NCBI GenBank assembly: GCA_034419075.1
Contig: DAOULR010000022.1
Span: 2,598 to 66,597 of the forward strand
Direction: 5' to 3'
DNA: 64,000 nt
Origin: Dehalococcoidales bacterium
Lineage (GTDB): Bacteria > Chloroflexota > Dehalococcoidia > Dehalococcoidales > BS750m-G39
Shown here: one piece after another, positions 25,544-54,522 of the stretch
Layout: each line of letters opens with the position of its first letter
Position numbering within the stretch: the first letter of the stretch is position 1
Notes under the pieces: generated by a model
What the model was told of the DNA's origin: nothing
Seen by the model: the letters and a program-made list of their open reading frames with translations, nothing else
Databases searched by the model: none
Position numbers and translations under genes: made by a program

Positions 25544-25600
25544 AATTCTTGATACTTTCTTGACCATCCCAACCAATTTCTTGACACCTCTTTGACTTCC
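25544..25600 (-). promoter_or_regulatory. Operator copy 1 (four TCAAGRA half-sites, spacing 11/21/11) upstream of usp
   Basis: Reverse complement GGAAGTCAAAGAGGTGTCAAGAAATTGGTTGGGATGGTCAAGAAAGTATCAAGAATT aligns with copies 2 and 3. Sits 130 nt from ATG 25730. Confidence 0.7.
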
Positions 25601-25729
25601 ATGAAGATAAAATCAGAAGGTGATATTCATAAATCCCCTGAACTGTCTGACCATACGGCTAGGCTGTTCCTAGGAGAACTGACTGGAGAAGAAAGGTCTA
25701 TGGCCGTAAATCTGTAGAAAGCGAGTAGA

Positions 25730-26200: not shown

Positions 26201-26212
26201 AGTGTCAAAGAA

Positions 26213-27697: not shown

Positions 27698-27802
27698 GTC
27701 TCTTATTTGGTGCAGCGGATGGTTCTGTCGCAGACGCTATCATATCTAGTCAATCCTCTAGCGACAGTCTGCTCCTATGAGCATCTCTATGCTAGCTTCA
27801 TA

Positions 27803-27858
27803 AAGGTCAAGGAGGTGTCAAGAAAGAGGTTTTGTCTGTCAAGAAGTTATCAAGAACC
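27803..27858 (+). promoter_or_regulatory. Operator copy 2 upstream of the permease gene
   Basis: AAGGTCAAGGAGGTGTCAAGAAAGAGGTTTTGTCTGTCAAGAAGTTATCAAGAACC. Sits 106 nt from ATG 27697. Confidence 0.7.
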
Positions 27859-27920
27859 ATGAATGAGATCGTGAGTTATTGGAGTGATGCTTCTTATATG
27901 AGGGATTATGGGCGATCACA

Positions 27921-28628
27921 CTATTCGCTGATCTTCAGCCGATATCCCACCCCGGGCTCGGTAATGATTAAACGTGGGCGAGCTGGGTCCGGTTCAATCT
28001 TGCGACGTAAGTTGCTGATGTTTACGTGCAGCATATGAAGTTCATCACCATACTCAGCTCCCCAAACTTCACGTAGCAGGTAACGGTGAGTCAGTACCTT
28101 TCCGGCGTGAGTTACCAGCACCCGAAGTAGCCCATACTCATTGGGTGTTAGTTGCACCTCGTTATCTGAGACAGTAACCAGCCTTCGTGATAGGTCAACT
28201 TTCAGGCTTCCGATGGTGAAGATTGGCTCAGGGGTTAGTTGAGCAGCACGGCGTAACGCGGCACGAAGACGGGCTAGTAGCTCGCCCACGCTGAAGGGCT
28301 TGGTCAGGTAATCATCTGCCCCAGCATCAAGCGCCGCTATTTTATTGTTTTCTGCGCCTCGGACCGATAGTATGATTATTGGTATTTGTGTCCACTCTCG
28401 GAGTAGTCGTGTCACCTCAACCCCATCAATGTCGGGCAGCCCCAGGTCCAGAATTACAATATCCGGTTTGTCTTCGACAACACTTGACAGCGCATCCTTG
28501 CCCGAGGCTGCCTCTAGTACCATGTATGCCTGAGATATGAGCGTAACACGCAAGAATCGCCGGATAGAGTCTTCATCATCAACAACTAAGACCTTCATAT
28601 TACTCATCGCGTTTCTCCGTAGTGTCAA
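27921..28628 (-). CDS. OmpR-family response regulator, KdpE-like
   Basis: 235 aa. Receiver domain plus winged-helix output. Overlaps the kinase stop. Alternative start at 28607. Confidence 0.85.
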   Translation of the reverse strand: MTLRRNAMSNMKVLVVDDEDSIRRFLRVTLISQAYMVLEAASGKDALSSVVEDKPDIVILDLGLPDIDGVEVTRLLREWTQIPIIILSVRGAENNKIAALDAGADDYLTKPFSVGELLARLRAALRRAAQLTPEPIFTIGSLKVDLSRRLVTVSDNEVQLTPNEYGLLRVLVTHAGKVLTHRYLLREVWGAEYGDELHMLHVNISNLRRKIEPDPARPRLIITEPGVGYRLKISE

Positions 28629-31917: not shown

Positions 31918-33126
31918 CTATTTGGCTTTAACTGGCTGTTTGGCTCGTCTAGGCTTTGCTTTAGGCTTCTCGGCTACTGGCTCGGTAGCCTCTGGCTGAC
32001 TCTCGGCTGGCTCGGTGGCAACCTCGGCTTTGGCTTGTTCGGCTTTAGCCTTTACCTCTGCCTGCGCCTCTGGCGTCAGCATCGGCATTACCACCAGTTG
32101 ATAGCCGTCAACGGTAAAGAGCAGTGGCGATACGCCGTTGGTGAGCTTAAGCTCCACCATACCCCCACAAGCCTTGAGGGCGTCGGCAAGATACTTGCCG
32201 TCCACCCTTATTCTGACCGTCTCACCGAGGGTGTCGGCTGCTAGCTCGGCTTGACCCTTATCATCGGGGTTAGCCATCACCAGCCTGCCTTCGCCAGCGG
32301 TGAGGTCAATCGGGTAGGCTTTGCTGTCGGATATGGCTTTGAGCGAGCTAACCGCCTTGATTGCCTCTACCGTGTCAAAGTGAACGAAGGTGCTAAACTC
32401 GGTAGGTATCAGCTTCTCATAGTCGGGGAAGTTACCCTCAAGGCTAGCCCACTTGTAGCGGATTAGCTCGGTGTCTATGGTGAGCGTCTTGATGTCCTCA
32501 CCGTCAAAGCTAACCCTCGCCCGCTTGGCTCTCCGCAGGGCATTGGCTATGCCCTGAAGCTCGTCACGGCTTATCAGAGCTTGCCCCTCTCCATCCTCGT
32601 AGTCAAGGCTTGTTACCGCCAGCCTGAAGCCGTCGGCACTGACCAGAGTCAATTTACCGTCTTTAGCCACCAAGCTGACACAAGCTAAAACAGGTCTATC
32701 GTCATCGGTGGCGGTAAACGGCAATACCCTTGACAGCGCCTCTGATAGCTCTAGGCTGCCGATGTTGGGCTTGACCGAGTTGTTGGGGCTGACCCTGACC
32801 TCGCAGAGGCTCATCGGCGTCTTATCGCCAATCCATTCGCTATCGGCAAGTTGGCTGGTATTAGCTCCGCAGATTACCTTAAGCCTCTTGTGTCCGTTAG
32901 CCTGCGACCCGCTAGCACTACCGTTAGACGGTATCACCTTGACGATGTTACTACCGCCCAAAGCCTTAAGGTATCCGAGTAAGCCTTTGCGCCCTATGGT
33001 CAAGTCCATAAGCATTACCCTTTCGGCTAACGCTCTGGACAGAGCGCCTACCAGCACAGCCTTGTGAGCGACAAAGCCGTCGCCTGAACGCTTGCCCACG
33101 ATATTAAGTTGTTCTATTTTAATCAC
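31918..33126 (-). CDS. DNA polymerase III beta (DnaN)-like sliding clamp with Ala/Glu/Lys-rich C-terminal tail
   Basis: 402 aa. TDDDRPVLACVSLVAKDGKLTLVSADGFRLAV, GNFPDYEKLIP and YQLVVMPM match clamp domain II/III landmarks. The last ~50 aa are low-complexity. Confidence 0.7.
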   Translation of the reverse strand: MIKIEQLNIVGKRSGDGFVAHKAVLVGALSRALAERVMLMDLTIGRKGLLGYLKALGGSNIVKVIPSNGSASGSQANGHKRLKVICGANTSQLADSEWIGDKTPMSLCEVRVSPNNSVKPNIGSLELSEALSRVLPFTATDDDRPVLACVSLVAKDGKLTLVSADGFRLAVTSLDYEDGEGQALISRDELQGIANALRRAKRARVSFDGEDIKTLTIDTELIRYKWASLEGNFPDYEKLIPTEFSTFVHFDTVEAIKAVSSLKAISDSKAYPIDLTAGEGRLVMANPDDKGQAELAADTLGETVRIRVDGKYLADALKACGGMVELKLTNGVSPLLFTVDGYQLVVMPMLTPEAQAEVKAKAEQAKAEVATEPAESQPEATEPVAEKPKAKPRRAKQPVKAK

Positions 33127-35260: not shown

Positions 35261-35944
35261 TCATTCTTCCAGTATTTTCTGGAGCCACTCTCTGTGCTCC
35301 TTGCCGGATATTTTCCTGTATTTAGCCGTGGTGTTGAAGGAAGCGTGCCCCAGGTGCTCCTGCAGGAGCCTCAGGCCGTCACCGGAGTCGTCCTTCTTGA
35401 CCGCCATAATGGCGAAGGCGTCTCTCAACTTGTGAGGGCTGACATTATGGGCTCTGCCGGTTTCGGGGTTTACCAGCTTCCCCAAGCCCGCCCTCCGAGC
35501 GCATTCCTTCACTATCTGCCAAGCCCTGTGTCTATTGATGCCGAAGATGAGCCGTTTGCCGTTATGGGACACGGGCCCGCCACGGTCGATGTAGCTCTTG
35601 AACATATCCAGGGTGCCGTCGTCCACAGGCAGGGTTCTGACTCTGCGGTGCTGCCCCTCCGTAGCCACCGTTTTCTCCACCTTCACGCCGCAAGCTGGGC
35701 AGAACCGGGCCGTCTTGCTCAACCTGGCGCCGCAGTCGGGACAGGAAAGGTTAAGCCTCACCTTGAGGTGCTCGATGGTTACCGTGCCCTGCTCAAAGTC
35801 GATATCGCCCACGGCAATGCCGAGGGCCTCCGATATACGACAGCCCAGGTGGGCCAGCAGCCTGATAAGCAGCTTGTCGCGGAGGTATTCCCCTGCCTCT
35901 TCAAGCCGCTCCACTTCCTCCGGCTCAAGATACGTCTTGATCAC
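35261..35944 (-). CDS. Compact tyrosine recombinase (catalytic domain only) with an inserted Zn ribbon
   Basis: 227 aa. Catalytic landmarks GCRISE (R), HKLRDAF (HxxR), HLGHAS (H), TAKY (Y). Insert is CPDCGARLSKTARFCPACG. Confidence 0.8.
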   Translation of the reverse strand: MIKTYLEPEEVERLEEAGEYLRDKLLIRLLAHLGCRISEALGIAVGDIDFEQGTVTIEHLKVRLNLSCPDCGARLSKTARFCPACGVKVEKTVATEGQHRRVRTLPVDDGTLDMFKSYIDRGGPVSHNGKRLIFGINRHRAWQIVKECARRAGLGKLVNPETGRAHNVSPHKLRDAFAIMAVKKDDSGDGLRLLQEHLGHASFNTTAKYRKISGKEHREWLQKILEE

Positions 35945-36768
35945 TCTCTCACCCCGTAGTCGGTTATGGCGAAACTGCTCAACGTCGGCAGCACGGTAAA
36001 GCTTCCCATTATGCCGTCAACCTCCACCTGGTAGTTCCCGGCTTGCTGGGGAGTGAAGTAGAGGTAATAGCCTTCATATTGGCCAGGCATCCGGGTTACC
36101 GTCCTCGCGTCGATTATCTCTCCGTTGACAGTACACGTTACCGCCATAGATCCGGTTATTTCCCCCCTGTTGGCGACGATGATTAATATTTCGACGGGTT
36201 GGCCGACTCTGACCTCGGCGGGTTGAATCTGAACGCCGCTTATAAATAGATCCGGTGCCGGCGGCGGTGCCTCAACGACGTCTATGGTCAATCCTATATC
36301 CAAACCCTGCCACAGCCAGCGCAGTTCCCACTGTCCAGTACCCGGCATCGTCGGGTCCGGCACCCACTCTATGAGAACGCAGGAAGTTCTGATGGCGTAG
36401 GTTCCGAGAGGCAGATAAATATAGTGTGGCGGGGGACCGGTTACGCCGAAAGTGCGTATCGATGCCCCCACTTCGTAGAAGCCAGCCGGCTGGTCCCTGA
36501 CGCTGACGGCGTCGGCATAGGCGTCGCTGCCGATCCAGCTGTGGAACTGGTAGTACCTGCTGTCGGGGACGTATCCCCTGGCATCGAAGGGAGCGGCGTT
36601 ATGGCTGGACGACCGGCTTTGAAGCACGTAGGATTGGGGCAGGTAAGCCGAAACCAGGTAAGGCTTCCCGGGGTGCCTCGATTCCATATGAGCGATAAGC
36701 GACTCCTCCGTACCAAAGGTAGCACCGCAGTACGCGCAGGGGACTAGGATAGCTCCGTCCGACACCAT
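35941..36768 (-). CDS. C2H2 zinc-finger protein with C-terminal CARDB/Ig-like domain (275 aa)
   Basis: ATG overlaps the protease stop (TGATG). CAYCGATFGTEESLIAHMESRH is C-x2-C-x12-H-x4-H. C-terminal GQPVEILIIVANRGEITGSMAVTCTV. Upstream part of the 684-aa track ORF rejected. Confidence 0.65.
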   Translation of the reverse strand: MVSDGAILVPCAYCGATFGTEESLIAHMESRHPGKPYLVSAYLPQSYVLQSRSSSHNAAPFDARGYVPDSRYYQFHSWIGSDAYADAVSVRDQPAGFYEVGASIRTFGVTGPPPHYIYLPLGTYAIRTSCVLIEWVPDPTMPGTGQWELRWLWQGLDIGLTIDVVEAPPPAPDLFISGVQIQPAEVRVGQPVEILIIVANRGEITGSMAVTCTVNGEIIDARTVTRMPGQYEGYYLYFTPQQAGNYQVEVDGIMGSFTVLPTLSSFAITDYGVRE

Positions 36769-38048
36769 CAAACCCCCTTTATCATCATGCCCATCATCCC
36801 CACCACCATCACCATGGGCACCATAGTCTCCATCATCCCGGTGATTGGCGTCGTCGTCTTGACCAGCCTGTTCACCATTACTCCCACTGCCGGCAGCCCG
36901 TACCCGTAACTGTTGTCCTTGGCCACCTGAACCCCTTCCGGTTTCACGCAGTAGGCATAGGCGTACGGCATCCAGTCGTAATATGTAATCCTGACCTCCT
37001 GGCCGTAGACCCTCCTCGCCAGGTCCCAGAGCAGGCCGTCGACGCCGACAAGTATCGGCGCGGAGAAGGATGTACCCGACTTGACTTCGTAGTCGCTGTC
37101 GCCCTTGTGGCTGGCGAGCTCGATGGACTCGGCCCAGCAGACGAAATCGGGCTTGGTAGCTCCCTCGACGGTAGGGCCGCGGGAACTCTCCTCCCAGACC
37201 GTGAACTCCCAGGTCTTGATGCCGCCCACCGCCACCACCTTGGGCTCGCACGCCGGACACATCAGCGTGGTAAGCTTCGGCCCCTGGTTTCCCGCGGCGG
37301 CGATGATCTGGAGTCCGTATTGCTCGACCGCGGTTCGGCAGGCCACTCTCATCGGGTTGTCGAGGTCTCCGTCGTCCTCGCCGCCTACGCTGACGTTTAT
37401 GGTGTTGGGGTACATGGGGTCGGTGGCGGGAAGCCCCTGCTGGTTCGCCTGCTCGACCAGGCTGCACACCCGGTCGATGGCCTCCACCAGCATCTCGTCG
37501 GTGCCCTCGCCGCTGTCGTTGATGACCTTGAGGTTCATCAGGGATGCGCCGGGGGCTACTCCCGACCTCTGGCCGAACTCTCCGGCTATGACGTAGGCTA
37601 CACCCGTCCCGTGACCGAACACGTCGGTCGTGCTCTCCGATTCGGAGAAGTTGGCCCGGTAAACCACCTTGCCCTCCAGCGCCTCGTGAGTCTCCCTGAT
37701 GCCGCTGTCGCAGACCGCTACCGTGAGTCCTGTGCCGATAAGAGGCGGGGAATATGCCTGGCGCAACTCGTTGAATGTGTCGTAGAGGTTGAGACTGCTT
37801 ACGATGTCTTCGAGCTGCAGCGGCAGAGCGGGATTGGGGGCAGGGGCGAGCCTCTCCGTCGCCACCCTTTGAACCGGCTTCAGCTTGAGACCGGCGACGG
37901 AGGACAGCCTTTTCGCCTGCTCCTCGTCGAGGTCGCAGAATAGCTGCTTCGCCGCAGGCAGCGGTTTGATGTTCTTGGCCCCCACCCCCCTGCATTCCCG
38001 CTCCACCTGGTCTAAGGCAAGTTCCTTGGGGATTATTGCGTATCTCAT
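36768..38048 (-). CDS. Subtilisin-like (S8) serine protease with Met-rich hydrophobic C-terminal tail
   Basis: Catalytic triad contexts VAVCDSGI, HGTGVAYV, SGTSFSAP. Tail is GMMETMVPMVMVVGMMGMMIKGV. Confidence 0.85.
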   Translation of the reverse strand: MRYAIIPKELALDQVERECRGVGAKNIKPLPAAKQLFCDLDEEQAKRLSSVAGLKLKPVQRVATERLAPAPNPALPLQLEDIVSSLNLYDTFNELRQAYSPPLIGTGLTVAVCDSGIRETHEALEGKVVYRANFSESESTTDVFGHGTGVAYVIAGEFGQRSGVAPGASLMNLKVINDSGEGTDEMLVEAIDRVCSLVEQANQQGLPATDPMYPNTINVSVGGEDDGDLDNPMRVACRTAVEQYGLQIIAAAGNQGPKLTTLMCPACEPKVVAVGGIKTWEFTVWEESSRGPTVEGATKPDFVCWAESIELASHKGDSDYEVKSGTSFSAPILVGVDGLLWDLARRVYGQEVRITYYDWMPYAYAYCVKPEGVQVAKDNSYGYGLPAVGVMVNRLVKTTTPITGMMETMVPMVMVVGMMGMMIKGV

Positions 38049-39702: not shown

Positions 39703-40178
39703 TCAAGCCTCCTCCATATGGCCTTATAGGGCACATCCACATTGGTATCAACTCCGTTGTCGGAGTGCATCTCCAGCCGTACCGGCTCATTGGCGCCGAA
39801 GTTCCCGTTGACCACCATCACCCCGTCGGGGTCGGCTCCCTTGGTAAACGCCTGGTTGTAAATCTCCTCCTCCGCGCCGGTCACATTCGTATAGGCTCTA
39901 ATGGTTACACCGGCACCGCCGGCGCAGTTCCTGATAGAGATAATGACGCACAGTACCTCTATTCTCCCCTCGGCCGGGATGGTCAGCACGTCAGCCCCCG
40001 GCTTGCCGCTGGACGCCGTTCCGCCGTTGAGATTCAGCCCTACAGCGGCGCCCTCGTCCTCTTCGGCTTCGACAAAGCGCAACAGCTTCTCGAAGAAGCC
40101 CGGGTAGTGCTCATCCAGGTAGATCGCTATCTCGGGCTTTATCTTCTGCTTGTATAGTTGGCCTGCGCTTCCGCTCAT
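39699..40178 (-). CDS. Hypothetical protein (159 aa)
   Basis: ORF track. 4-nt overlaps on both sides. Confidence 0.5.
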   Translation of the reverse strand: MSGSAGQLYKQKIKPEIAIYLDEHYPGFFEKLLRFVEAEEDEGAAVGLNLNGGTASSGKPGADVLTIPAEGRIEVLCVIISIRNCAGGAGVTIRAYTNVTGAEEEIYNQAFTKGADPDGVMVVNGNFGANEPVRLEMHSDNGVDTNVDVPYKAIWRRLE

Positions 40179-40666
40179 TCGGCTGCCCTCGTCATCATCG
40201 TTCCGATCATCATTACCATCATGAACATCATCAGCACGTTCATGATGTCACCCGTGTCGGAGGAGGTGGTCGGTATGCCCGGCAGCACGGGCAGGTTGGC
40301 GGTGCCAGCGCTTGTCAGTGCGGTGGAGACCGAGTCGGTAATTTCGTTCGTCTCCCTCTCGTAGAGGCTGATGGTCAAGGCGGCATCGGTATAGTCGAGC
40401 ACCAGAGCGCCGGGCAGGCTGACCACGTTGTTGGCCTCGACGGAAAACCAGGCCGCCTCGTCGACCTTTATCGGAAACTCGCTGACCACCTCGTCGTTCC
40501 TGGTGAGACGGGCCATCATCATGTACTCGCGGTCGACGCCGGTGGGGTTGGCCACGTAGATGCGACAGTGTATCTCGCTCCCGGCGACATAGGTCATCGA
40601 CGGAGACAGGTTCCAGAAGATGTCGCCGTATTCGCCGACCAGTTCCGCTTGCTGCGCTTCGATCAC
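40175..40666 (-). CDS. Ig/CARDB-like protein with Met-rich C-terminal module (163 aa)
   Basis: Tail is DIMNVLMMFMMVMMIGTMMTRAAE. Beta-rich body. Confidence 0.6.
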   Translation of the reverse strand: MIEAQQAELVGEYGDIFWNLSPSMTYVAGSEIHCRIYVANPTGVDREYMMMARLTRNDEVVSEFPIKVDEAAWFSVEANNVVSLPGALVLDYTDAALTISLYERETNEITDSVSTALTSAGTANLPVLPGIPTTSSDTGDIMNVLMMFMMVMMIGTMMTRAAE

Positions 40667-40671: not shown

Positions 40672-41091
40672 CTAGACCTCCTCCATCATCGGCATCATCA
40701 TTCCCATCATCATTACCATCATGAGCATGGGTAGCATGTCCATAATGCCGGCCGACATACCGCTAATCACCACCGCATCGGGTATGGTCACCTCGTTGCC
40801 GTCGACCTCGACCTTCATCCAGTATGTGCCGTCGCTTTTACCGGACGCGGGTATGACTATCTCGGTAGTTCCCGACCAGGTTTTGGGGGTGAGGGTAGCC
40901 TCCAGACTGATTTCTTTGAAGCTCTCTATATCGCGGCCCACCCCCAGGCCGAGAGACGCCCAGAGAGTTACCGTGGCGCCCTGCGAGACGGTGTATTTGA
41001 AACTGACCTCAATCACCAGGGTATCGCCCGGTGCTAAAGGTATCAGCTTGCCGGCCGCCAGCACTGTCAGGTCGGTTATATTAGCCCCCAT
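40672..41091 (-). CDS. Ig/CARDB-like protein with Met-rich C-terminal module (139 aa)
   Basis: LAPGDTLVIEVSFKYTV core. Tail is GIMDMLPMLMMVMMMGMMMPMMEEV (13 Met in the last 25 residues). Confidence 0.6.
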   Translation of the reverse strand: MGANITDLTVLAAGKLIPLAPGDTLVIEVSFKYTVSQGATVTLWASLGLGVGRDIESFKEISLEATLTPKTWSGTTEIVIPASGKSDGTYWMKVEVDGNEVTIPDAVVISGMSAGIMDMLPMLMMVMMMGMMMPMMEEV

Positions 41092-41094
41092 TAG

Positions 41095-41640
41095 CTACTC
41101 CTTCTTGTAGTAGTCGACCACGGTAAACTCCGAGAAATCTACCTCCAGGCCGACGATATTCAGAGCCCCCAGGTACCTCAGGCCAAGCTCCTCGCCCCCG
41201 CCGGACACCTTGCACTCGATATCGTCCCAATCGCTCACCGTATTTGTCGGGAGGACGATGTCGAGGTTGCCCGTGTATAGCGTGGGAGTGGTGGTCTGGG
41301 GAAGGCTCCGGCTCCTGCTCTTGCTGACCTTCTCGTCGTAAATGTGGGTGACCGAGCCGTAGACGCCTACCGAGGCGTACTCGATAACGGTTACCGCCGG
41401 CCCGCTGTATCTGTAGCTGTACTCAATCCTCAGAGTATCGCCCGGCGCGATATCCACCGTCTTGGGCGCGGTCTCGCTGGCTATTGATAGCGGAACGAGC
41501 AGGCCAGCGGTGTGTATGTACCACTGCTTGACCGAGGCGTCGTAATAGTAGTACTCCCCGGTGTTGGGATCGCGATACCATCCCGTCTGGTACTGCGACG
41601 GGGTGATAACCCCCAGGTCCAGCTGCAATGTTTTCACCAT
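41095..41640 (-). CDS. Ig/CARDB-like paralog (181 aa)
   Basis: IAPGDTLRIEYSYRYSG core parallels the 40672-41091 product. Confidence 0.55.
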   Translation of the reverse strand: MVKTLQLDLGVITPSQYQTGWYRDPNTGEYYYYDASVKQWYIHTAGLLVPLSIASETAPKTVDIAPGDTLRIEYSYRYSGPAVTVIEYASVGVYGSVTHIYDEKVSKSRSRSLPQTTTPTLYTGNLDIVLPTNTVSDWDDIECKVSGGGEELGLRYLGALNIVGLEVDFSEFTVVDYYKKE

Positions 41641-41643
41641 CTC

Positions 41644-42030
41644 CTACCTCCTGCTGTAGTTTGATATTTCGAACTGGCTGAACTCCGGCACCAGTTCAGC
41701 CACGTCGATGTCCTTCGTTTTCTCGTCGTCAAAATGCCAGGCGCCGTCGCTGCCGTACCAGTAGCTGTAGGCGTGTATGGTCACGTCGCTGTCCGGCATG
41801 GTGAAGTGCCCGTAAAAGGTATGGGTCGCCCCGGCGGCAACATTGGCCTGATAGCTCGGGTAGTCGATGGTCGGCCAGGGCGTAACCCCGTACTCGAGAG
41901 CCCCTCCCGCCATGATGCCGATGGAGGCTGAGTAGGTGTTTTTTATCCTGACCTCTATGTCGACCCTCTGGCCGGCAACAGCGCCGCTCGGAGCGACTAT
42001 TCCCACAATTTCGGTATACTTGCCCGCCAT
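41644..42030 (-). CDS. Ig/CARDB-like paralog (128 aa)
   Basis: AVAGQRVDIEVRIKNTYS core. Confidence 0.55.
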   Translation of the reverse strand: MAGKYTEIVGIVAPSGAVAGQRVDIEVRIKNTYSASIGIMAGGALEYGVTPWPTIDYPSYQANVAAGATHTFYGHFTMPDSDVTIHAYSYWYGSDGAWHFDDEKTKDIDVAELVPEFSQFEISNYSRR

Positions 42031-42218
42031 CAGCTGCCTCCTATCAGCGGTATCTCGACCTTCTCTCCCTTCCAGGCCTTCTTGGCTACCGAGAACGCCC
42101 AGGACAGGAGGGCTATCAGGATAGCGATGTCGATCATCACCGCGACAAGTTCTGGCCAGAACACGGGCTGGACCTGACCCGCCGCCACCGAAGTCTGGGG
42201 TTGAACGCCGCTTGTCAT
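42030..42218 (-). CDS. Small single-TM protein (62 aa)
   Basis: ORF track. TM helix LVAVMIDIAILIALLSWAF. Overlaps both neighbouring genes. Confidence 0.45.
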   Translation of the reverse strand: MTSGVQPQTSVAAGQVQPVFWPELVAVMIDIAILIALLSWAFSVAKKAWKGEKVEIPLIGGS

Positions 42219-42673
42219 TTCTTCTCCGTAGCTCCGGACATGAACTTCATCATGAGCACCATCACGCCCACCATGACCATCATGTTAATCATGGCTTTAA
42301 TATCCTCGGGGAGAATCCACCAGACAAAGGCCCCGATCAGCACCGGCAAGACTATGAGGACCAGCATGCCGATTATTACCGACATCCAGGCGAACCCCTT
42401 GACCCAGCAAAGGTAAACCGTGGGCTGGCTGGAATCGGCGTAGGCGACCTGACTGTAGCCCGGCCAGGGCGGCACGCCCGCCTGATCGAGCTTCTGGTTG
42501 AGCTCGGCAATTACCTCGGCCGAGGGGAAGTCCGCAAAGTTGAGCTGCATCAGCATCAGCGTCCCCTCGGCTGCGCCCTCTTCGAGCGGGCTGATACTAT
42601 GCAGCCCGTCCAGGGTATCGGATGTACCCAGGAGATACGCCTTGTAACCGTATGGCACCATTTTCCCCTCCAT
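42215..42673 (-). CDS. Membrane protein with Met-rich C-terminal module (152 aa)
   Basis: TM helix plus tail AMINMMVMVGVMVLMMKFMSGATEKK. Confidence 0.55.
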   Translation of the reverse strand: MEGKMVPYGYKAYLLGTSDTLDGLHSISPLEEGAAEGTLMLMQLNFADFPSAEVIAELNQKLDQAGVPPWPGYSQVAYADSSQPTVYLCWVKGFAWMSVIIGMLVLIVLPVLIGAFVWWILPEDIKAMINMMVMVGVMVLMMKFMSGATEKK

Positions 42674-42874
42674 AGCGATGAAGGGCTTGCCAGCTGGTAT
42701 TCCCGCATGGCAAGCCCTTCTCTATAGCTACCGTCTGATTGATAGCCGTTTCAGGCAGCAATCCGCCTGCACGAGATGCTGTATCGCTTCCCGGTCCCTA
42801 GCATGACCGGGCCTTATTCCGGCCCTCCGCATCGGCGGGTTGCCCCCTGGCTATCGAGCCCCGATGCGGGAACC

Positions 42875-43669
42875 TTAGCTGACGAGTAGCTTGCCCGCGC
42901 GGCCCCAGACGCGAAGGTAGGCATCGACCGCAGCGCCGGCTACGGCGGCGGTGGCCACGGTTACCACCAGGGTAAGCTTGTCGCCGCCGACCAATCTCAG
43001 CTCGTTGTTGAGCTCATCGGCCTCTCTGAAGTCCCGCATGACCTCCTGAAGCTGCTGCTCTACGGTGGAGGTGACGTCGCCGCTGGTCTGGTCTATGTTG
43101 GTGATCTTCTGATACAGACCGGCCACAAGCAGCTTGTGGTCATAGATGGCGCCGGCCGCAATCTCGGCCTGGGTGGCGGCCAGCCCTCCCCCGGATACCT
43201 TCGCCCCCCCGGTGGTGAGATACTGCTTGGCGCTGCCGTCGTAGTAGAGCTTGTCGGCATCATCGACCTTGGGGAACGAGGATACCCTGAAGTTGACGGA
43301 GATGTCGCCGGCGGTCAGGCCGCTCGCCTGGGGAATCTGGATCTTGTGGCCGCAGAGATACCAGACCTCGCCAGCCGGTACCTCGATCTCGCCGCTTTTG
43401 GACTGGCCGACGGCCGTGCCGATGGGAACCGTAACCTTGACCTCGCCGTTCCTGGTGTCGACTATGTCGTTAGTCCACTGCTTCTCGGCCAGGATCAGGG
43501 GCTGGACGACGGCCAGGTCCAGGTTCCAGAACCTCGCCTCGCCCTTGTAGTAGCCGATGGGCAGGATGCCGAGTGAGCCGCGGTATCTGCGTTCGGTAGC
43601 CAGCAGCGGCGTAATCGAGGCGAGCTGCTGCGGGGTAATGCTCTTGTCTTTTATCCTTCTCTGGCTCAT
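42875..43669 (-). CDS. Hypothetical protein (264 aa), candidate major structural protein
   Basis: ORF track. Largest soluble beta-rich protein at the head of the module. No fold recognised by eye. Confidence 0.5.
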   Translation of the reverse strand: MSQRRIKDKSITPQQLASITPLLATERRYRGSLGILPIGYYKGEARFWNLDLAVVQPLILAEKQWTNDIVDTRNGEVKVTVPIGTAVGQSKSGEIEVPAGEVWYLCGHKIQIPQASGLTAGDISVNFRVSSFPKVDDADKLYYDGSAKQYLTTGGAKVSGGGLAATQAEIAAGAIYDHKLLVAGLYQKITNIDQTSGDVTSTVEQQLQEVMRDFREADELNNELRLVGGDKLTLVVTVATAAVAGAAVDAYLRVWGRAGKLLVS

Positions 43670-43687: not shown

Positions 43688-43816
43688 TTAAACCTTCTCG
43701 GTTGCTTTACCCATCATCTTCATCATCATGACCACTATCATCACCATGATGAGCATGTTCATGATGGAGTTGATGTCGAGGCCGTTTTGTTGTCCGGTAA
43801 TAAGCCCTGTAGTCAT
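43688..43816 (-). CDS. 42-aa Met-rich mini-protein
   Basis: Not in ORF track. GAGGAGG SD. Translation MTTGLITGQQNGLDINSIMNMLIMVMIVVMMMKMMGKATEKV. Confidence 0.55.
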   Translation of the reverse strand: MTTGLITGQQNGLDINSIMNMLIMVMIVVMMMKMMGKATEKV

Positions 43817-43849
43817 CTGCTATACCTCCTCTAGTTTTGTCGCCCCGGC

Positions 43850-44047
43850 CTAGATTTTCTCGGTCGCCGACGTCATCATCTTCATCATCATGACGACCAC
43901 CATCAGCATGATCATCATGTTCATGATTGAGTTGATGTCGAGCTGGGTCGTTGTGGTGGTGGCCGGGAGCGTTCCCGCCTGCAACGCGACGGTAGGTGCC
44001 TGTTGACCCGTGACCGGCACCGAGCCTGCTTGCTGTACTCTAGTCAT
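43850..44047 (-). CDS. 65-aa Met-rich mini-protein (paralog of the 42-aa ORF)
   Basis: Internal ATG 44047 preceded by AGGAGGGA and overlapping the upstream stop (ATGA). Ends ..QLDINSIMNMMIMLMVVVMMMKMMTSATEKI. Confidence 0.55.
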   Translation of the reverse strand: MTRVQQAGSVPVTGQQAPTVALQAGTLPATTTTTQLDINSIMNMMIMLMVVVMMMKMMTSATEKI

Positions 44048-44301
44048 AGTTCCCTCCTGTGTCTGTAGACTTCTACCAGTCTCTTTGCCTCCCTCTCCAC
44101 GCAGGCTACGTCGTTCTCCGGACAGAAAGCCTCCGCCCGGTTCACCGCCCATAGCCCGTACCTCTCGATCAGCGGTTGCTTCGCCTCCCAGGGAATAGAG
44201 TGGTGACCGATTGCCCTGCTTGCCACAACTGCCACCCCAGTTATCATGAAGGCCGATAGCGCCAGGTTAACGACATACTCAAGCTGCTGAGAGACAGGCA
44301 T
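44044..44301 (-). CDS. Small membrane protein (85 aa), hypothetical
   Basis: ORF track. One TM helix (LALSAFMITGVAVVA). Confidence 0.45.
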   Translation of the reverse strand: MPVSQQLEYVVNLALSAFMITGVAVVASRAIGHHSIPWEAKQPLIERYGLWAVNRAEAFCPENDVACVEREAKRLVEVYRHRREL

Positions 44302-44316: not shown

Positions 44317-44529
44317 CTATTTATAGGCTGCCTTCATGTTTTCGTAGCACTTTTCGAACAGGTCACTGGCCGCCTTGGTCATCAGGTCCTTCCAGGCCTT
44401 GACCGGCGCCGAGCCCTCGTCTACCTTGACACCGAGGTACTCTGAGAGCTTGCCGGTCATCTTGGTGACGGCTAGCGGGCTGGTGACGCTGTTGATGAAC
44501 TTCTCCTTGGCTGATGCCTTTGTCGCCAT
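44317..44529 (-). CDS. 70-aa Lys-rich helical protein, first gene of the late module
   Basis: Internal ATG 44529 preceded by GGGAGG. The upstream extension in the ORF track covers hairpin sequence. Confidence 0.5.
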   Translation of the reverse strand: MATKASAKEKFINSVTSPLAVTKMTGKLSEYLGVKVDEGSAPVKAWKDLMTKAASDLFEKCYENMKAAYK

Positions 44530-44613: not shown

Positions 44614-44672
44614 GGCCGAAAGGAAAAGGGACGTTGCCTCCAACCTTACCGCCGAAGGTTGCAACGTCCCTT
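44614..44672 (-). other. Long compound hairpin in the leader of the late module (terminator or attenuator)
   Basis: AAGGGACGTTGC..AACCTT..AAGGTT..GCAACGTCCCTT (12-bp outer and 6-bp inner stems), followed on the minus strand by TTTTCCTTTC. Confidence 0.5.
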
Positions 44673-44690
44673 TGGTTAGCCTCGGAGCTG

Positions 44691-44746
44691 CCGATAAAAG
44701 AAAGTAAGCCCTGTGAGCCGACTTTCATCGGCAAACTCACAGGGCT
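44691..44746 (-). terminator. Rho-independent terminator
   Basis: AGCCCTGTGAG...CTCACAGGGCT stem followed on the minus strand by TTACTTTCTTTTAT. Confidence 0.6.
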
Positions 44747-44779
44747 ACATATTTAGGCTACATCAGGCATCGGCCTTTG

Positions 44780-44992
44780 TCAAGACTTGTAGGCTGCCTG
44801 AATGTGCTCGCCGTAGCGCAAAATCCCTTCCTGGAGTCGCACCGGCAGCGCCAGGAACCTCCTCACCCGGGCCGCCTCGGCCCGTCTCTCCTCGCCGGGT
44901 GCATCGCTCGCGGGAACGGCCGGCGGCACGCCGGTCAAGGCCTCGATAACCCTGGCGGCTTCGGCCACGCGGGACGCGCCTGCAGCCGCCAC
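44780..44992 (-). CDS. Hypothetical protein (70 aa)
   Basis: ORF track. Abuts the upstream gene. Confidence 0.4.
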   Translation of the reverse strand: MAAAGASRVAEAARVIEALTGVPPAVPASDAPGEERRAEAARVRRFLALPVRLQEGILRYGEHIQAAYKS

Positions 44993-45234
44993 TAGGTCCT
45001 CTCGCCTTCCATGTTGAATAGCTGGTAGAGCATCTGCGTTACGCTGGTCACGATCCCCTCCTGCAACTGGGGTACGAGCTTGGCTGCCTCCGGGTCGTCC
45101 GTCTTGAGGGTGACTTCCACGAGGTTATCTCCGGTGTGGATTACGTAGCCGATCTTTTTCGTCAGCGCCTGCATGCTCGCCAGCTGCTCCCGCTGCTGCG
45201 GGGTGGCAAACGCCATTGGATTGAATACCATCAT
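44992..45234 (-). CDS. Hypothetical protein (80 aa)
   Basis: ORF track. 4-nt overlap with the upstream gene. Confidence 0.45.
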   Translation of the reverse strand: MMVFNPMAFATPQQREQLASMQALTKKIGYVIHTGDNLVEVTLKTDDPEAAKLVPQLQEGIVTSVTQMLYQLFNMEGERT

Positions 45235-45971
45235 TCACCTCCTTGTTCTCGTTTATCAACTAAACCCGGTGTGGGGCCGACCTTTCCGCCGAACAGTTGC
45301 CCGGTAATCTGGTTGATAACCGTCTCCATCGTCCTGGCGATAAGGCCCTTCATCGGGTCTTTAGCCTGGGCGATGTCCGGCTTCTGCTGCTGCATCTGGT
45401 TGAATTTCTCCTCCATCCAGCCTACGGCCTGCCCGCCGACCTCGGCGGCCGCCCGGGTGGCTATCTCTACGTTCGACTCCTTGGCCCGCTGCGCCGCGGC
45501 GTCCATGTCTTCCCTGGCCTTCTCCATGATATCGAGGATGGGCTTCATCGCCTTCGCCTGGGCCTCGGCCTGGCCTTTCATTATCTCGACGTCGCTCATT
45601 ACCGCCATCTGGGCTGCCCGGTAGAGCATGAAGCCTTTCAGCATCCAGGTGCCGGCATCGCCGTCGGAGAGCAGGTAGCCCTCCAGTATCGCCTCGGGGG
45701 AGATGACCTCCTGCCCGCCGCCAGCCTTGAGCACCATCGGCAGCTTCGGCATTTCCACCCCCTCATCCCCCGGCTTGCCCTTGGGGGCTATCCTTTTTTT
45801 CGCTACCTGTCTTACCGTGGAGTGGGCGTATCCCCACTCCTTCTCTATCTGCACCGGGGTGTAGCCCTCGTCGAGCAGCTTCTCTATCCTCTTTCGCTGG
45901 GTGTCCTCGCCCACCGGCTCGACGTCAGCCTTAGTGGTCGGTTTCTCCTGTCCCTTTTTCCTGGCTGCCAT
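45231..45971 (-). CDS. HTH-containing protein (246 aa), function unknown
   Basis: N-terminal LLDEGYTPVQIEKEWGYAHSTVRQV helix-turn-helix. Helical C-terminal region. Confidence 0.5.
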   Translation of the reverse strand: MAARKKGQEKPTTKADVEPVGEDTQRKRIEKLLDEGYTPVQIEKEWGYAHSTVRQVAKKRIAPKGKPGDEGVEMPKLPMVLKAGGGQEVISPEAILEGYLLSDGDAGTWMLKGFMLYRAAQMAVMSDVEIMKGQAEAQAKAMKPILDIMEKAREDMDAAAQRAKESNVEIATRAAAEVGGQAVGWMEEKFNQMQQQKPDIAQAKDPMKGLIARTMETVINQITGQLFGGKVGPTPGLVDKREQGGE

Positions 45972-45983: not shown

Positions 45984-46036
45984 CCCAAATAAATAAGCCC
46001 TGCGAGCCGACTTTCGTCGGCGGGCTCGCAGGGCTT
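45984..46036 (-). terminator. Rho-independent terminator (sequence-related to 44691-44746)
   Basis: AAGCCCTGCGAGCC...GGCTCGCAGGGCTT stem followed on the minus strand by ATTTATTT. Confidence 0.6.
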
Positions 46037-46165
46037 TTCTTCAAAATACCACCCCGCGTCGTAGCTGTCAATAGAAAAGGTCGTATCTCACCCCAAACTC
46101 GGGTCGCACCTGTAGCTACGATCCGCCCAGCTACGACCTCCCGCCGACCAAACCCAACTATAGCG

Positions 46166-47092
46166 TCAAGGGATACCCCCTCCCCCCTCCGGCAACAACA
46201 GCTCAATCGCCCTCTGGACGCCCAGGTCGGGGGCGAGCCGGGCTACCCTCACGGCGTCCCTGACATCCTGTGACCGGCCGTCGAGCCGCTCGGCTATCTC
46301 CTCGGCGACCGGAGGCGGGAGCCCTTCCCGGCGAACCAGCACGCCCCTCACCACGGTCCTGAACTCGTCCCTGCCGTAGGCGCCGAGCCTCCGGATGGCG
46401 AAGCGCGACCTGAGCTCCGGGGAGAGCCTGTCCTCGACGTTGGTGGCGGCCACGACCTTCAGCTCCAGGCTGGTATTGAGTTCCCGCCCCTTCTTCGCCC
46501 TGACCATGCGCCCGCCCTCCATGATGCTGAGGAGGGCCGCGGTATCGGCGGCGTTCACCTTGTCCAGCTCGTCCACCAGCAGTACCTCCGGCCGCCTCTC
46601 CGCTACCAGGTCCCACAGCCCCGCCTTCGATATCGCCGAGCCGACCAGCCAGACCGTCTTCTCCCCGCCGGCTCTCTCGATATCCCATAGGAACAGGGTC
46701 TTGGCCAGCGCCGGCGGGCCGGTCAGCAGCACGTGAACCGCCTTTTCCGCCAGCAGGCAGGCCCTGAGCAGCTCCTTTACGTCGTCATGGCCGATAATAT
46801 CCTGGAAGATGTCCTCGGGAACCCCTAGTTTTCGATTCTGCTTCGTCTCAGCACGGTTGGGCGCGCCGTCGAGGAGCACGGCCCGGGCCTCGGGTGTCAG
46901 CCTGTAACCGTGGTACGAGTTGGACTCGTAGACGTCCTCGACGAGCCCCTCCATCCGCAGCTTCGTCAAGGCGCCCGGCCACACCCCGACGTCGCGGGAG
47001 CGCCAGCCCAGCTTGGCGGGCAGGCTCTCCGGGTCGAAGCCGTCCTCGGCCTCGGCTATGCGGCGGAGCAGCTCGACGTCGGTTTCTTTCAC
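46166..47092 (-). CDS. AAA+ ATPase with N-terminal winged-helix-like domain and deviant Walker A
   Basis: 308 aa. Walker A GPPALAKT (Ala where Gly is canonical), Walker B LLVDELD, sensor-1 VVAATN. Confidence 0.75.
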   Translation of the reverse strand: MKETDVELLRRIAEAEDGFDPESLPAKLGWRSRDVGVWPGALTKLRMEGLVEDVYESNSYHGYRLTPEARAVLLDGAPNRAETKQNRKLGVPEDIFQDIIGHDDVKELLRACLLAEKAVHVLLTGPPALAKTLFLWDIERAGGEKTVWLVGSAISKAGLWDLVAERRPEVLLVDELDKVNAADTAALLSIMEGGRMVRAKKGRELNTSLELKVVAATNVEDRLSPELRSRFAIRRLGAYGRDEFRTVVRGVLVRREGLPPPVAEEIAERLDGRSQDVRDAVRVARLAPDLGVQRAIELLLPEGGGGIP

Positions 47093-47463
47093 TGTAATCC
47101 CCTTTGCCTCTTGATCATCTCGTAGGCGGCCAGCACTATCTGCAGCAGGAAGCCGGTACCCGGCGTGCCCGACTTGTCCGGGTGGAGCCTGTTCACCAGC
47201 TCCCGGTACCGCTCCTTCAGCTCATCGTCGGAGGCGGACTTGTCCAGCCCCAGAATCTGATAGGGGTCGAATAACGGTTGCTGCCCCGCCAGCCCGGGCA
47301 GACGGGAAAAATCCACCCCCATCTGCCTCATAAGATCCATGAGCTTCGCCGGGTCCAGGGCGCCTCTCAGGAAGCCGTCCGTCCAGCCACGTATCTCTTC
47401 CTGGAAGACCCTCATCCACCGGCGGCAGATCCTTGCCAGGAGTTCCCTGCTGTTGGCTGTCAT
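47089..47463 (-). CDS. J-domain (DnaJ-like) protein
   Basis: DPYQILGLDKSASDDELKERYRELVNRLHPDK, with the HPD tripeptide. Confidence 0.75.
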   Translation of the reverse strand: MTANSRELLARICRRWMRVFQEEIRGWTDGFLRGALDPAKLMDLMRQMGVDFSRLPGLAGQQPLFDPYQILGLDKSASDDELKERYRELVNRLHPDKSGTPGTGFLLQIVLAAYEMIKRQRGLQ

Positions 47464-52879: not shown

Positions 52880-54391
52880 ATGGTCAAGGAACTAGAAAAC
52901 AGACCGGCAAGGTGCTGCATCTACGCCCGGGTCTCAACCGATGAACAGGCCGAGCGGGACCTCTCAATCCCCTTTCAGCTGGAGAGGTGCCGCTACCATG
53001 CCCAGGGCAACAGCTGGGAAATCGTTGCCGAGTTCGTCGACGCCGGCGAAAGCGCCCGCACCGACAAGCGCCCCGAGTTTCAGAAGATGATCGCCTCGGC
53101 CAGGGCCAAAGACTTCGACGTTATTCTGGTGCACAAGTTCGACCGATTCGCCAGAAACGACTACGACTTCGTCGTCTACGAGAAAGAGCTGGAAGACTTG
53201 GGCATAACGGTGGAGAGCGTGAGCGAGCCCGGCGACGCTTCTACTCCAGCCGGCTATATCGGCCGACGGATGATGCAGGTCATCAGCACCTGGTACTCCA
53301 AGAACCTGGCCATCGAAGTGAAGAAGGGAATGCAGAAGGCCGTTGAAAACGGCGGCTGGCCCAAGAAAGCACCCTTCGGTTATTTGAACAAGCACGACAA
53401 GAACTCGGCGTGGGTCGAGGTCGACCCGAAGAACGGGCCGTTCGTCACCCAGGCTTTCCAAGAGATGGCTACCGGCCGCTGGACGCTCGAGGAGTGGGCG
53501 GACCAGGCCTATTCTTTAGGCTATACCAGCCGAAACGGTAACCGAGTAGTCAAACAGGCATGGAGCGCCATATTTCACAACCGGTTTTACCTTGGTGAGA
53601 CCTGGCTTAAAGACGGGGATACGCCCATCAAGGGGAAACACCAACCGCTGGTGGATGAAAATGTCTTTTTCCAGGTGCAGGACGTCCTGAGGCAGCACGA
53701 CAAGTATAAGCAACGCACCCAGCGCCACAAGTACCTGCTGCGCGGGCTGCTCTACTCCCTCGACGCCGACAGCTCGTGCTGGGCCGAGACGCACGTCAGA
53801 AAACGGATAAGCTACTACCGCACCCGCGCTAAAGCGGATGAGGGCCATGTGTTCTACAATACCAAGGACATTGAGGCACAGCTTCCCGACATCTTCAGAA
53901 GCGTGACCATTAGCCAGGATACCCGACAGCAATTGAGGCAGGAGCTGGCGGACTGGTTCGGGACTGAGGCTGGCAGTAACGAAGACCTGAAAAAAGCGGA
54001 GGCCCGGCTGACCAAGTTGGAAAAAATGGAGAAAAACCTCCAGCGGCTGGTTATCGAGGAGGAGATATCCTTTAAGGACTTCAAGGAACACCGGTCACGC
54101 ATCGAAGCGGAGAGGAGCCGACTGAGGAATACCGTAGACGCAATAAGGCAACGCCAGCATCTTGTCAAAGCTGATTTTGAGATAGCCCTTCAATTGGCCA
54201 CTGAGCTGGATTTCCTTTTTGACAAGGGTAACTTCGATGAGAGACGATTGCTCTGCGAAACGGTGCTCAAACGCCTGTATGTAAAAGAAGGCAAGGTTAC
54301 TAAGGTGGAGCTTAACTCGCCGTTCGCCCTTATCGCATCAAGGGCGGATGGTTCGGAATCTGTCTTGAGTGGTGGGCGGTACAGGACTTGA
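52880..54391 (+). CDS. Large serine recombinase (integrase)
   Basis: 503 aa. Resolvase catalytic N-terminus (CCIYARVSTDEQ), recombinase domain, coiled-coil C-terminal region. Its last codons contain a copy of the tRNA-Val 3' end. Confidence 0.9.
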   Translation: MVKELENRPARCCIYARVSTDEQAERDLSIPFQLERCRYHAQGNSWEIVAEFVDAGESARTDKRPEFQKMIASARAKDFDVILVHKFDRFARNDYDFVVYEKELEDLGITVESVSEPGDASTPAGYIGRRMMQVISTWYSKNLAIEVKKGMQKAVENGGWPKKAPFGYLNKHDKNSAWVEVDPKNGPFVTQAFQEMATGRWTLEEWADQAYSLGYTSRNGNRVVKQAWSAIFHNRFYLGETWLKDGDTPIKGKHQPLVDENVFFQVQDVLRQHDKYKQRTQRHKYLLRGLLYSLDADSSCWAETHVRKRISYYRTRAKADEGHVFYNTKDIEAQLPDIFRSVTISQDTRQQLRQELADWFGTEAGSNEDLKKAEARLTKLEKMEKNLQRLVIEEEISFKDFKEHRSRIEAERSRLRNTVDAIRQRQHLVKADFEIALQLATELDFLFDKGNFDERRLLCETVLKRLYVKEGKVTKVELNSPFALIASRADGSESVLSGGRYRT

Positions 54392-54393
54392 AC
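54369..54393. repeat. 25-nt duplicate of the tRNA-Val 3' end (att-like direct repeat) inside the integrase 3' end
   Basis: GTGGTGGGCGGTACAGGACTTGAAC recurs at 54446-54470 within the tRNA. Confidence 0.9.
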
Positions 54394-54446
54394 TTCTGGA
54401 GGTGCGGAGGGAGTAGGTGGTAGAAGTCAAGGCCGGGGAGGGGCGG

Positions 54447-54522
54447 TGGTGGGCGGTACAGGACTTGAACCTGTCACCTCTTGCGTGTGAAGCAAGCGCT
54501 CTAACCACTGAGCTAACCGCCC
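54447..54522 (-). tRNA. tRNA-Val (anticodon CAC), CCA encoded
   Basis: Hand-folded cloverleaf. Acceptor GGGCGGT/ACCGCCC, D arm GCTC-AGTGGTTA-GAGC, anticodon arm CTTGC-TTCACAC-GCAAG, variable AGGTG, T arm ACAGG-TTCAAGT-CCTGT, then A-CCA. 76 nt. Confidence 0.9.

Follow-up and report, generated by a model that had tools for sequence, protein, structure and literature searches.

We analysed a stretch of 64,000 nucleotides (nt; the window) from a contig of a Dehalococcoidales bacterium (DAOULR010000022.1), in which two adjacent genes encode mini-proteins of 65 and 42 amino acids (aa). They lie in an integrated mobile element that extends from ~52.4 kb down to ~34 kb of the window and is possibly larger (at least 17 kb of double-stranded DNA, dsDNA), and the flanks are bacterial (WalK-type kinase, PstC, ComEC, PilB). 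The original prediction, made from the letters alone, had described the two as tandem paralogs with strong Shine-Dalgarno (SD) sequences, placed just upstream of a 264-aa candidate structural protein and shaped like small viral coat or membrane proteins. The genes and their SD sequences are located as follows.

44052-44058, minus strand: SD sequence AGGAGGG of the 65-aa gene, 4 nt 5' of the ATG and within the 3' end of the preceding 85-aa gene
43850-44047, minus strand: 65-aa mini-protein gene, ATG at 44047-44045, product ending KMMTSATEKI
43825-43831, minus strand: SD sequence GAGGAGG of the 42-aa gene, 8 nt 5' of the ATG
43688-43816, minus strand: 42-aa mini-protein gene, short-form paralog with the same helix, product ending KMMGKATEKV

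The ATG of the 65-aa gene and the TGA stop of the 85-aa gene overlap (ATGA), a sign that their translation is coupled, and the 264-aa gene begins 18 nt 3' of the 42-aa gene. By their sequences the mini-proteins are paralogs: the C-terminal 30 residues of the 65-aa protein are 80% identical to those of the 42-aa protein (24/30; BLASTP E = 9e-6), and the DNA is 84% identical across 86 nt. The 42-aa open reading frame (ORF) is below common ORF-calling cut-offs; on other contigs it is called as a gene, and gene callers annotate both mini-genes there. A 100-aa in-frame ORF (to 44152) was rejected as the true gene of the 65-aa protein, because all of the 30+ homologs begin at the Met of the 65-aa form. 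Also rejected were the antisense plus-strand ORF at 43728-43853 and His-rich plus-strand ORFs (e.g. 42212-42727), which are mirror images of ATG runs and not genes; being His- or Met-rich, these plus-strand ORFs could mislead ORF tracks.

Conservation of the pair was examined at two depths. A word-indexed search gave 36 close homologs in length classes of 62-66 aa and 40-43 aa, and an exhaustive HMMER search of 1.84 billion representatives gave 194 clusters at 50% identity (E ≤ 1e-3), whose lengths are almost all within 38-80 aa and peak near 40 aa and at 60-69 aa. One homolog is labelled Deltaproteobacteria and may come from a mis-binned contig. At every related locus covering the position, the tandem mini-genes, each with a GGAGG SD sequence, stand directly 5' of a homolog of the 264-aa gene. 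Pairwise Nei-Gojobori ratios of nonsynonymous to synonymous substitution rates (dN/dS) for the two genes were 0.165 and 0.153 in the clade of the window, and 0.174 and 0.121 in the Dehalococcoides-type clade. We conclude from these sequence comparisons that both mini-ORFs are genuine conserved genes under purifying selection, and their products are almost certainly real membrane proteins of a mobile element. The genomic part of the original prediction was thus borne out: the coordinates of the tandem paralogous genes are exact and the pair is conserved, both SD sequences are strong and recur at every related copy, and the order with the 264-aa gene is kept in related loci.

Known families gave little. 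The mini-proteins matched nothing in Pfam at E ≤ 0.01 and nothing in NCBIfam, their profile matched no PDB sequence, and in PHROGs only the 42-aa protein matched, weakly, the unannotated phrog_25692 (E = 5.6e-4). A Foldseek search of BFVD with the AlphaFold2 (AF2) model of the 65-aa protein returned a single match at E = 9, a single-helix model being a weak probe. Searches by tblastn found no relatives among INPHARED phages or PLSDB plasmids. We found no description of the mini-protein family in the literature; neither it nor the lineage of the element appears to have been described.

The mini-proteins have masses of 6,976 Da (6.98 kDa, 65-aa) and 4,650 Da (4.65 kDa, 42-aa) and an isoelectric point of ~8.3. 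In the AF2 model of the 65-aa protein (24-sequence alignment), the polar, Q/P/T-rich N-terminus (1-37) is disordered and a single helix spans residues 38-64, in agreement with the layout that the original prediction had described. The 19-residue hydrophobic core contains 10 Met in the 65-aa and 9 Met in the 42-aa protein. In the helix of the mini-proteins the Met share is 42-58% (8-11 Met/19 residues), compared with 3.3% in host transmembrane (TM) segments of the same window (19/570, 30 segments) and 1 Met/19 in the other TM segments of the same element; Met-richness as a general trait of the host or the element was thereby ruled out. Seven positions are invariant in both length classes (I41, N43, I46, V52, M53, K56, M58). 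The mean flank charge of 168 family members is -1.1 in the eight residues before the helix and +1.0 in the eight after it, and the whole protein has three K+R and two D+E. Of the polar, hydrophobic and basic layout first proposed, the polar segment and the Met-rich hydrophobic helix stood, together with a slight C-terminal basicity; the "basic end" itself is barely basic, with two Lys and one Glu after the core.

Similar Met-rich helices form the tails of four larger proteins of the conserved gene block around the mini-genes (the module), a feature absent from the original prediction.

42215-42673, minus strand: 152-aa protein with a soluble N domain, an ordinary first TM segment (TM1), then a mini-type Met-rich helix (ending EDIKAMINMMVMVGVMVLMMKFMSGATEKK)
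40672-41091, minus strand: 139-aa protein with a CARDB-like sequence pattern, judged by eye, and a Met-rich C-terminal tail (ending GIMDMLPMLMMVMMMGMMMPMMEEV), without signal peptide
40175-40666, minus strand: 163-aa protein with a CARDB-like sequence pattern, judged by eye, and a Met-rich C-terminal tail (ending GDIMNVLMMFMMVMMIGTMMTRAAE), without signal peptide
36768-38048, minus strand: 426-aa subtilase (Peptidase_S8) with a Met-rich C-terminal tail (ending GMMETMVPMVMVVGMMGMMIKGV), without signal peptide

The tail of the 152-aa protein aligned to the mini-protein profile with an hhalign probability of 94% at 55% identity and, on this evidence, is clearly homologous to the mini-proteins. 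The tails of the 139-aa and 163-aa proteins aligned more weakly (58% and 66%, respectively), and the likeness of the S8 tail to the mini-helix is one of composition only. A six-frame scan of the window found six Met-rich tails inside the element. Of the two other matches, both ORFs that are not genes, one lay outside the element at ~62.1 kb; real genes in the ~45 kb of flanks had none. The same set of tails was found in every clade, including Dehalococcoides mccartyi, whose mini-proteins read MFSAMMPMIMMVMMMAILMPMMKGVTGSSKS, close to the 139-aa tail of the window. In relatives the motif also ends DUF192 proteins, and in some of them (P0310) a mini-type helix stands N-terminal, before the soluble domain of the 85-aa protein. 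Since the helix occurs at the ends of larger proteins and in fusions, we conclude that it is a portable module of these elements, of which the mini-proteins are the free form.

Two side observations concern the same helices. The S8 subtilase may remove the N-terminal extension by which the 65-aa form differs from the 42-aa form; its best NCBIfam match, a membrane-anchored mycosin of type VII secretion, scores far under the cut-off. The first late protein of the element, of 246 aa (45231-45971, minus strand; 7883-8689 in locus L001 and 7319-8203 in locus L018), has an N-terminal helix-turn-helix (HTH), and its relatives carry a Met-rich amphipathic stretch near the C-terminus (ending NPMQRMIGMMQSIPQMMTAASGLMGMFGM); contact between this stretch and the Met-rich helices could tie DNA to the membrane proteins.

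By the positive-inside rule, the flank charges predict that the mini-proteins are oriented N-out/C-in, like the coat protein of Pf3. The 152-aa protein is consistent with this orientation (cytoplasmic N domain, TM1 outward, Met helix inward), and natural fusions with a soluble domain after the helix also fit it. We found no signal peptide in any module protein. The 139-aa, 163-aa and S8 proteins depart from this orientation: their N-terminal domains are large, no signal peptide was found in them in any clade and the helix is at the very end, so that they would be tail-anchored with the N-terminus inside. The 139-aa tails have an acidic end in place of the basic end of the mini-proteins, a difference compatible with the two packing antiparallel; the flanks of the 163-aa and S8 tails are not consistent with such packing. 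The absence of signal peptides from the module would favour assembly at the cytoplasmic face, of the internal-membrane type, over a budding envelope with exported spikes.

Directly 3' of the mini-genes is the candidate structural gene.

42875-43669, minus strand: 264-aa protein with a low-confidence N-terminal arm, one helix and a jelly-roll beta sandwich; candidate capsid or matrix protein

Its AF2 model (38-sequence alignment) has about nine strands, with a mean predicted local distance difference test score (pLDDT) of 78 and a predicted TM-score (pTM) of 0.68. The first ~49 residues are of low confidence (pLDDT <50 at 1-13 and 19-37), and this arm is basic in the copy of the window. The model agrees with the eight-stranded jelly roll behind a flexible arm that is typical of single-jelly-roll viral capsid proteins. 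A Foldseek search of BFVD put CRESS-DNA or circovirus-like capsids foremost, as they make up most of the named entries among the best 20 (E 7e-6 to 1e-4), and the capsids among the weaker PDB matches were those of a nanovirus, a geminivirus, a sobemovirus and P23-77 VP16 (single jelly-roll). Judged by the model, the protein is a jelly roll, and it is plausible that it is a capsid protein. Its homologs (n = 190), where named, are assigned to Dehalococcoidia, Dehalococcoidales or Chloroflexota, or lie in one complete genome of D. mccartyi (CP177166.1, with the element at ~1.085-1.105 Mb), and 11/11 matches among GTDB species representatives are Dehalococcoidia.

The remaining genes and sites of the element, in transcription order, are listed below, preceded by the two features that adjoin it.

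52.9-54.5 kb, next to the element: large serine recombinase, then tRNA-Val
First in order: HTH repressor on the opposite strand, then a Gp3-like recombination directionality factor
Next: 738-aa DUF3854 primase-type protein
46166-47463, minus strand: DnaJ-domain protein (124 aa) and winged-HTH/AAA+ ATPase (308 aa; RuvB/MCM/clamp-loader-like), core genes always found with the module
45990-46071, minus strand: promoter-like TTGACA-17-TATTTT with TG, leader hairpin with a 13-bp stem and T-run, before the gene of the 246-aa HTH protein
3' of this first promoter-like site: 246-aa HTH protein, 80-aa protein
44615-44790, minus strand: promoter-like TTGACA and two leader hairpins with T-runs, 5' of the sub-operon with the mini-genes
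44317-44529, minus strand: 70-aa soluble Lys-rich protein, first gene past the second promoter-like site and its leader hairpins, with a hairpin 3' of its stop
44044-44301, minus strand: 85-aa protein with an ordinary N-terminal TM segment and a soluble Cys-containing domain, 68-76% conserved
42030-42218, minus strand: 62-aa single-pass membrane protein, TM segment ordinary and not Met-rich, conserved
41095-42030, minus strand: 128-aa and 181-aa proteins with a CARDB-like sequence pattern, without TM segment, with the C-terminal tag (E/D)FSxFx(I/V)x(D/N)Y
Between the CARDB-like paralogs and the S8 subtilase: variable region with 159-, 290- and 238-aa proteins
Between the S8 subtilase and the tyrosine integrase: zinc-finger/CARDB protein
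35261-35944, minus strand: tyrosine integrase that contains a zinc ribbon insertion and marks the downstream end of the module
Last, after the tyrosine integrase: 173-aa DUF192 protein (DUF192 only)

The gene order of the module, the DnaJ protein and the AAA+ ATPase are conserved across clades, while relatives have swapped primases (DUF3854 or PrimPol/D5) as well as recombinases (tyrosine or serine). A conserved module combined with exchanged replication and integration genes is the mosaic pattern of a temperate virus or plasmid. In all clades the module comes with the DUF192 gene, which relatives L010 and P0288 carry as a fusion with an ArdcN domain. The 128-, 181-, 139- and 163-aa proteins are four paralogs, their likeness to CARDB being judged by eye. 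Both promoter-like sites share a hairpin with a stem of ~11-13 bp, AGCCCTG[C/T]GAG..CTC[G/A]CAGGGCT, followed by a T-run; the second site (44615-44790) has in addition a GC-rich hairpin plus TTTTCCTTT. The leader hairpin is kept at the same two positions in close relatives (L005-L009). By analogy with lambda PR'-tR', the leader hairpins look like terminators that need antitermination. An Rfam scan for RNA elements returned tRNA only.

Further observations concern the surroundings of the module. A second C-terminal tag is found on CARDB-like proteins that lack a Met tail (all minus strand: 41644-42030, ending PEFSQFEISNYSRR; 41095-41640, ending VDFSEFTVVDYYKKE; 35941-36770, ending LSSFAITDYGVRE). 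In the 64 kb window it occurs in the element only; it is conserved in L001 and L004, is unmatched in the Dehalococcoides-type clade, and could serve as a docking strand. A perfect 25-nt direct repeat of the tRNA-Val 3' end is present at 54369-54393 and 54446-54470, 77 nt apart, one copy falling within the final codons of the gene for the 503-aa serine recombinase (52880-54391); this repeat is probably a remnant of an attachment site. No such repeat linking tRNA-Val to the far end of the element was found, so the borders given for the element are approximate, and one or two elements may be present. A divergent 402-aa protein resembling the DNA polymerase III beta clamp (31918-33126, minus strand), with a Lys/Ala/Glu/Pro-rich low-complexity C-terminal tail, is encoded between the DUF192 and 188-aa genes of the element and a host kinase gene, and could be part of this element or of another. 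The region 14000-30000 is a low-GC island (41-48% GC, versus 52-65% over the element and 54-58% in the right flank) that encodes a 1030-aa IGHMBP2/PLuB-like helicase (18043-21135) and a 1041-aa protein without family match (21142-24267), and it looks like a defence island.

We favour the reading that the mini-proteins are structural membrane or coat proteins of a non-tailed virion and the free form of a shared Met-rich tag, and give it somewhat better than an even chance. The coat or envelope reading of the original prediction survives in this form, as viral-type small membrane proteins in a morphogenesis-like operon of a non-tailed virus-like element, next to a jelly-roll gene; what fell away is kinship with the filamentous or pleomorphic coat families. 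On the favoured reading, the mini-proteins would be produced in large amounts from the late operon, under the apparent terminator/antiterminator control of its leaders, and would enter the cytoplasmic membrane of their Dehalococcoidia host N-out/C-in, needing no signal peptide. Through the nearly invariant helix face formed by the seven positions named above, they would associate side by side into a virus-specific membrane patch, into which proteins with the same kind of helix would partition. Flexible Met side chains can pack promiscuously, the M domain of SRP54 being an example. The jelly-roll protein would assemble on the patch, the CARDB-like proteins would help to complete the particle, and the patch would become the internal or envelope membrane of a non-tailed particle with ~20 kb of dsDNA. 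Since every clade retains a long and a short paralog (or two long ones), the two may form a hetero-oligomer. In this scheme the insertion into the membrane, the abundance of the mini-proteins, the co-sorting and the place in the virion are inferred.

A fuller version of the favoured reading can be drawn, which we hold tentatively and regard as possible rather than probable. The elements would be a new lineage of non-tailed, membrane-containing, jelly-roll dsDNA viruses of wall-less Dehalococcoidia, including D. mccartyi, and the Met-rich helix would be an address tag. Free mini-proteins would polymerise into the membrane patch, and the helix would recruit the tail-anchored CARDB-like (spike-type) proteins and a maturation protease, possibly via antiparallel Met-Met packing.

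Several results weigh against a structural role in a virion. Scans of IMG/VR returned no relatives, whether the query was the 264-aa protein, the alignment of its homologs or that of the mini-proteins. The BFVD matches of the jelly roll have TM-scores of 0.2-0.35, its PDB matches (E ≥ 2e-3) mix capsids with cellular CBM, TNF and MAM domains, and the 264-aa protein could instead be a receptor-binding head. A second capsid gene was sought, and the 238- and 290-aa proteins showed no profile similarity to the 264-aa protein. No packaging ATPase of the FtsK/HerA or Zot type (PF05707 included) was found in the large ORFs of the element, and 0/34 loci were circular contigs with terminal repeats. The predicted topologies are inconsistent, the mini-proteins and the 152-aa protein being N-out/C-in and the 139-aa, 163-aa and S8 proteins N-in, and without signal peptides no module protein is an obvious candidate to decorate the outside of an enveloped particle.

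Four other explanations were weighed. The mini-proteins might be non-structural lysis or superinfection-exclusion peptides, either a holin/antiholin-like pair or membrane-depolarising, which we consider unlikely. They are small single-TM proteins with a charged C-terminus, the tandem forms differ at the N-terminus in a way that recalls holin/antiholin pairs, and the genes are located in a late operon. Dehalococcoidia lack a murein wall. No endolysin would therefore be needed, which counts for this explanation. However, the mini-proteins matched no holin family in Pfam or PHROGs, and no lysin gene was found in the element. Structural-type proteins of the module and its protease share their helix, the mini-genes stand among conserved morphogenesis genes directly 5' of the jelly-roll gene in every clade, and the helix residues are conserved much more strictly than is usual in holins.

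About as improbable is that the element is plasmid-like or vesicle-forming, its Met-rich proteins building a membrane transfer or vesicle apparatus. No capsid, portal, terminase or packaging ATPase was recognised in it by sequence, it has no relative in IMG/VR or INPHARED, its module is accompanied by the DUF192 gene with ArdcN fusions in some relatives, and vesicles are abundant in Dehalococcoides cultures (bioRxiv 10.64898/2026.09.15.751708). In contrast, the search of the element turned up neither a relaxase nor a gene for a coupling protein or for type IV secretion, no relative is present in PLSDB, and the jelly-roll protein best matches viral capsid proteins. The sequence of repressor, recombination directionality factor, primase, late operon, receptor-type variable region and integrase is moreover a typical temperate-virus design.

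A shade less probable again is that the mini-proteins are true filamentous major coat proteins that sheathe DNA during extrusion, as Pf3 coat and pVIII do. The Pf3 coat protein lacks a signal peptide and inserts N-out/C-in. The mini-proteins resemble it and the Ff coat (Inoviridae g8p) in size (42-65 aa, compared with 40-50 aa), in having one helix with acidic residues before and Lys after the hydrophobic core, in lacking a signal peptide and in predicted orientation. Abundant filaments were seen in Dehalococcoides virome fractions, although these were linked to IME1, Dehalococcoides elements proposed in a September 2026 preprint to be budding/filamentous dsDNA viruses (bioRxiv 10.64898/2026.09.15.751708). 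Against a filament, and against the kinship with filamentous-phage coat or pleomorphic-virus envelope proteins that the original prediction had suggested, there is no match to a coat family in Pfam, PHROGs or NCBIfam, none to PDB sequences and no fold match in BFVD, and no sequence or profile similarity to Pf3 or Ff coat was seen. The mini core is Met-rich, whereas inovirus cores are made of Ala/Val/Ile/Gly, and the C-terminus has a net charge of ~+1 instead of a clearly basic DNA-binding end. The element has no pI/Zot ATPase, no pIV or other secretin and no rolling-circle Rep, comprises at least 17 kb of dsDNA versus 4-11 kb for an inovirus genome, and encodes a jelly roll, several CARDB-like proteins and a protease, nothing that a filament needs.

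Least probable is that the helix is a C-terminal sorting signal cut by the S8 protease in sortase-like fashion. The mini-proteins would then be signals or substrates in free form, or would act as decoys or regulators. Several proteins of one locus do end in a short motif followed by a TM helix and charged residues, as in PEP-CTERM, PGF-CTERM and LPXTG systems, near a dedicated tail-bearing protease with a sub-threshold mycosin match. However, no CTERM sorting-domain model of NCBIfam matched (E ≤ 10), no exosortase, archaeosortase, rhombosortase or sortase gene accompanies the S8 protease, the tail carriers lack the N-terminal signal peptide that, to our knowledge, all known sorting systems require, and the tag also exists as free mini-proteins that form a large family of their own, with strong purifying selection along the helix.

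Dehalococcoidia are key dechlorinating and subsurface bacteria, and almost nothing is known of their non-tailed viruses, of which IME1 was the first to be proposed, as late as September 2026. The family described here is present in many Dehalococcoidia genomes, including one complete D. mccartyi genome, and may be open to experiment if that strain is cultured. A strictly conserved TM helix of which about half is Met, and which serves as a free peptide as well as a tail of several proteins, is an unusual design, and the shared helix offers a testable model of how a virus sorts proteins into its own membrane. The mini-genes would also serve as a practical 30-residue metagenome marker for such elements where gene callers skip 40-codon ORFs.

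Among known viruses, Pleolipoviridae (VP3-type proteins) and Plasmaviridae (L2) are comparable in that temperate viruses carry small integral membrane proteins. Their hosts lack a murein wall and their genomes are 7-17 kb. They differ in having a spike protein with a signal peptide, whereas no module protein has one, and no PHROG similarity to their envelope proteins was found. Simuloviridae and their relatives (Sphaerolipoviridae, Matshushitaviridae) are temperate viruses with 16-19 kb of dsDNA, according to the ICTV profile (PMC12642351), and share genome size, lifestyle and fold with the element. In these tail-less membrane viruses, as in PRD1 and PM2, many small TM proteins are encoded beside jelly-roll capsid genes, and assembly is at the cytoplasmic face, so signal peptides are not needed. 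However, Helvetiavirae have two adjacent jelly-roll capsid genes and an FtsK/HerA ATPase, while the element has one recognised jelly roll and only the RuvB/MCM-like AAA+ protein. The proteins of the element matched no PHROGs of tail-less membrane viruses, and we know of no shared Met-rich tail in tail-less icosahedral membrane viruses.

The preprint on IME1 describes several small TM proteins and reports that IME1 DNA dominates DNase-protected virome DNA (bioRxiv 10.64898/2026.09.15.751708). IME1 and the element family share a host class, a size of ~20 kb as integrated elements with recombinases and a primase, a CARDB protein, a run of small TM proteins in a module without tailed-phage hallmarks, and escape from standard virus classifiers. 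They differ in five respects. The defining gene of IME1 encodes a pI-like (Zot domain) ATPase, HOG04, where the element has only the RuvB/MCM/clamp-loader-like AAA+ protein; the GC content of IME1 is 44-45%, compared with 52.3% in the D. mccartyi locus L010; and IME1 is found as ~20 near-identical D. mccartyi copies, whereas the jelly-roll protein of that locus (P0101) is a single-member cluster at 90% identity. The preprint makes no mention of methionine, subtilase, DnaJ or DUF3854, and the small proteins of IME1 match SSV1 VP1 and phrog_11172 by fold, whereas the 65-aa model, a weak probe, matches nothing. The element family is therefore not IME1 as defined in the preprint, being set apart by this description, and would constitute a second lineage, distinct from IME1 and invisible to IMG/VR, INPHARED and PLSDB. 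By analogy, IME1 would be its closest conceptual relative and a precedent for reading the mini-proteins as structural membrane proteins of a non-tailed virion.

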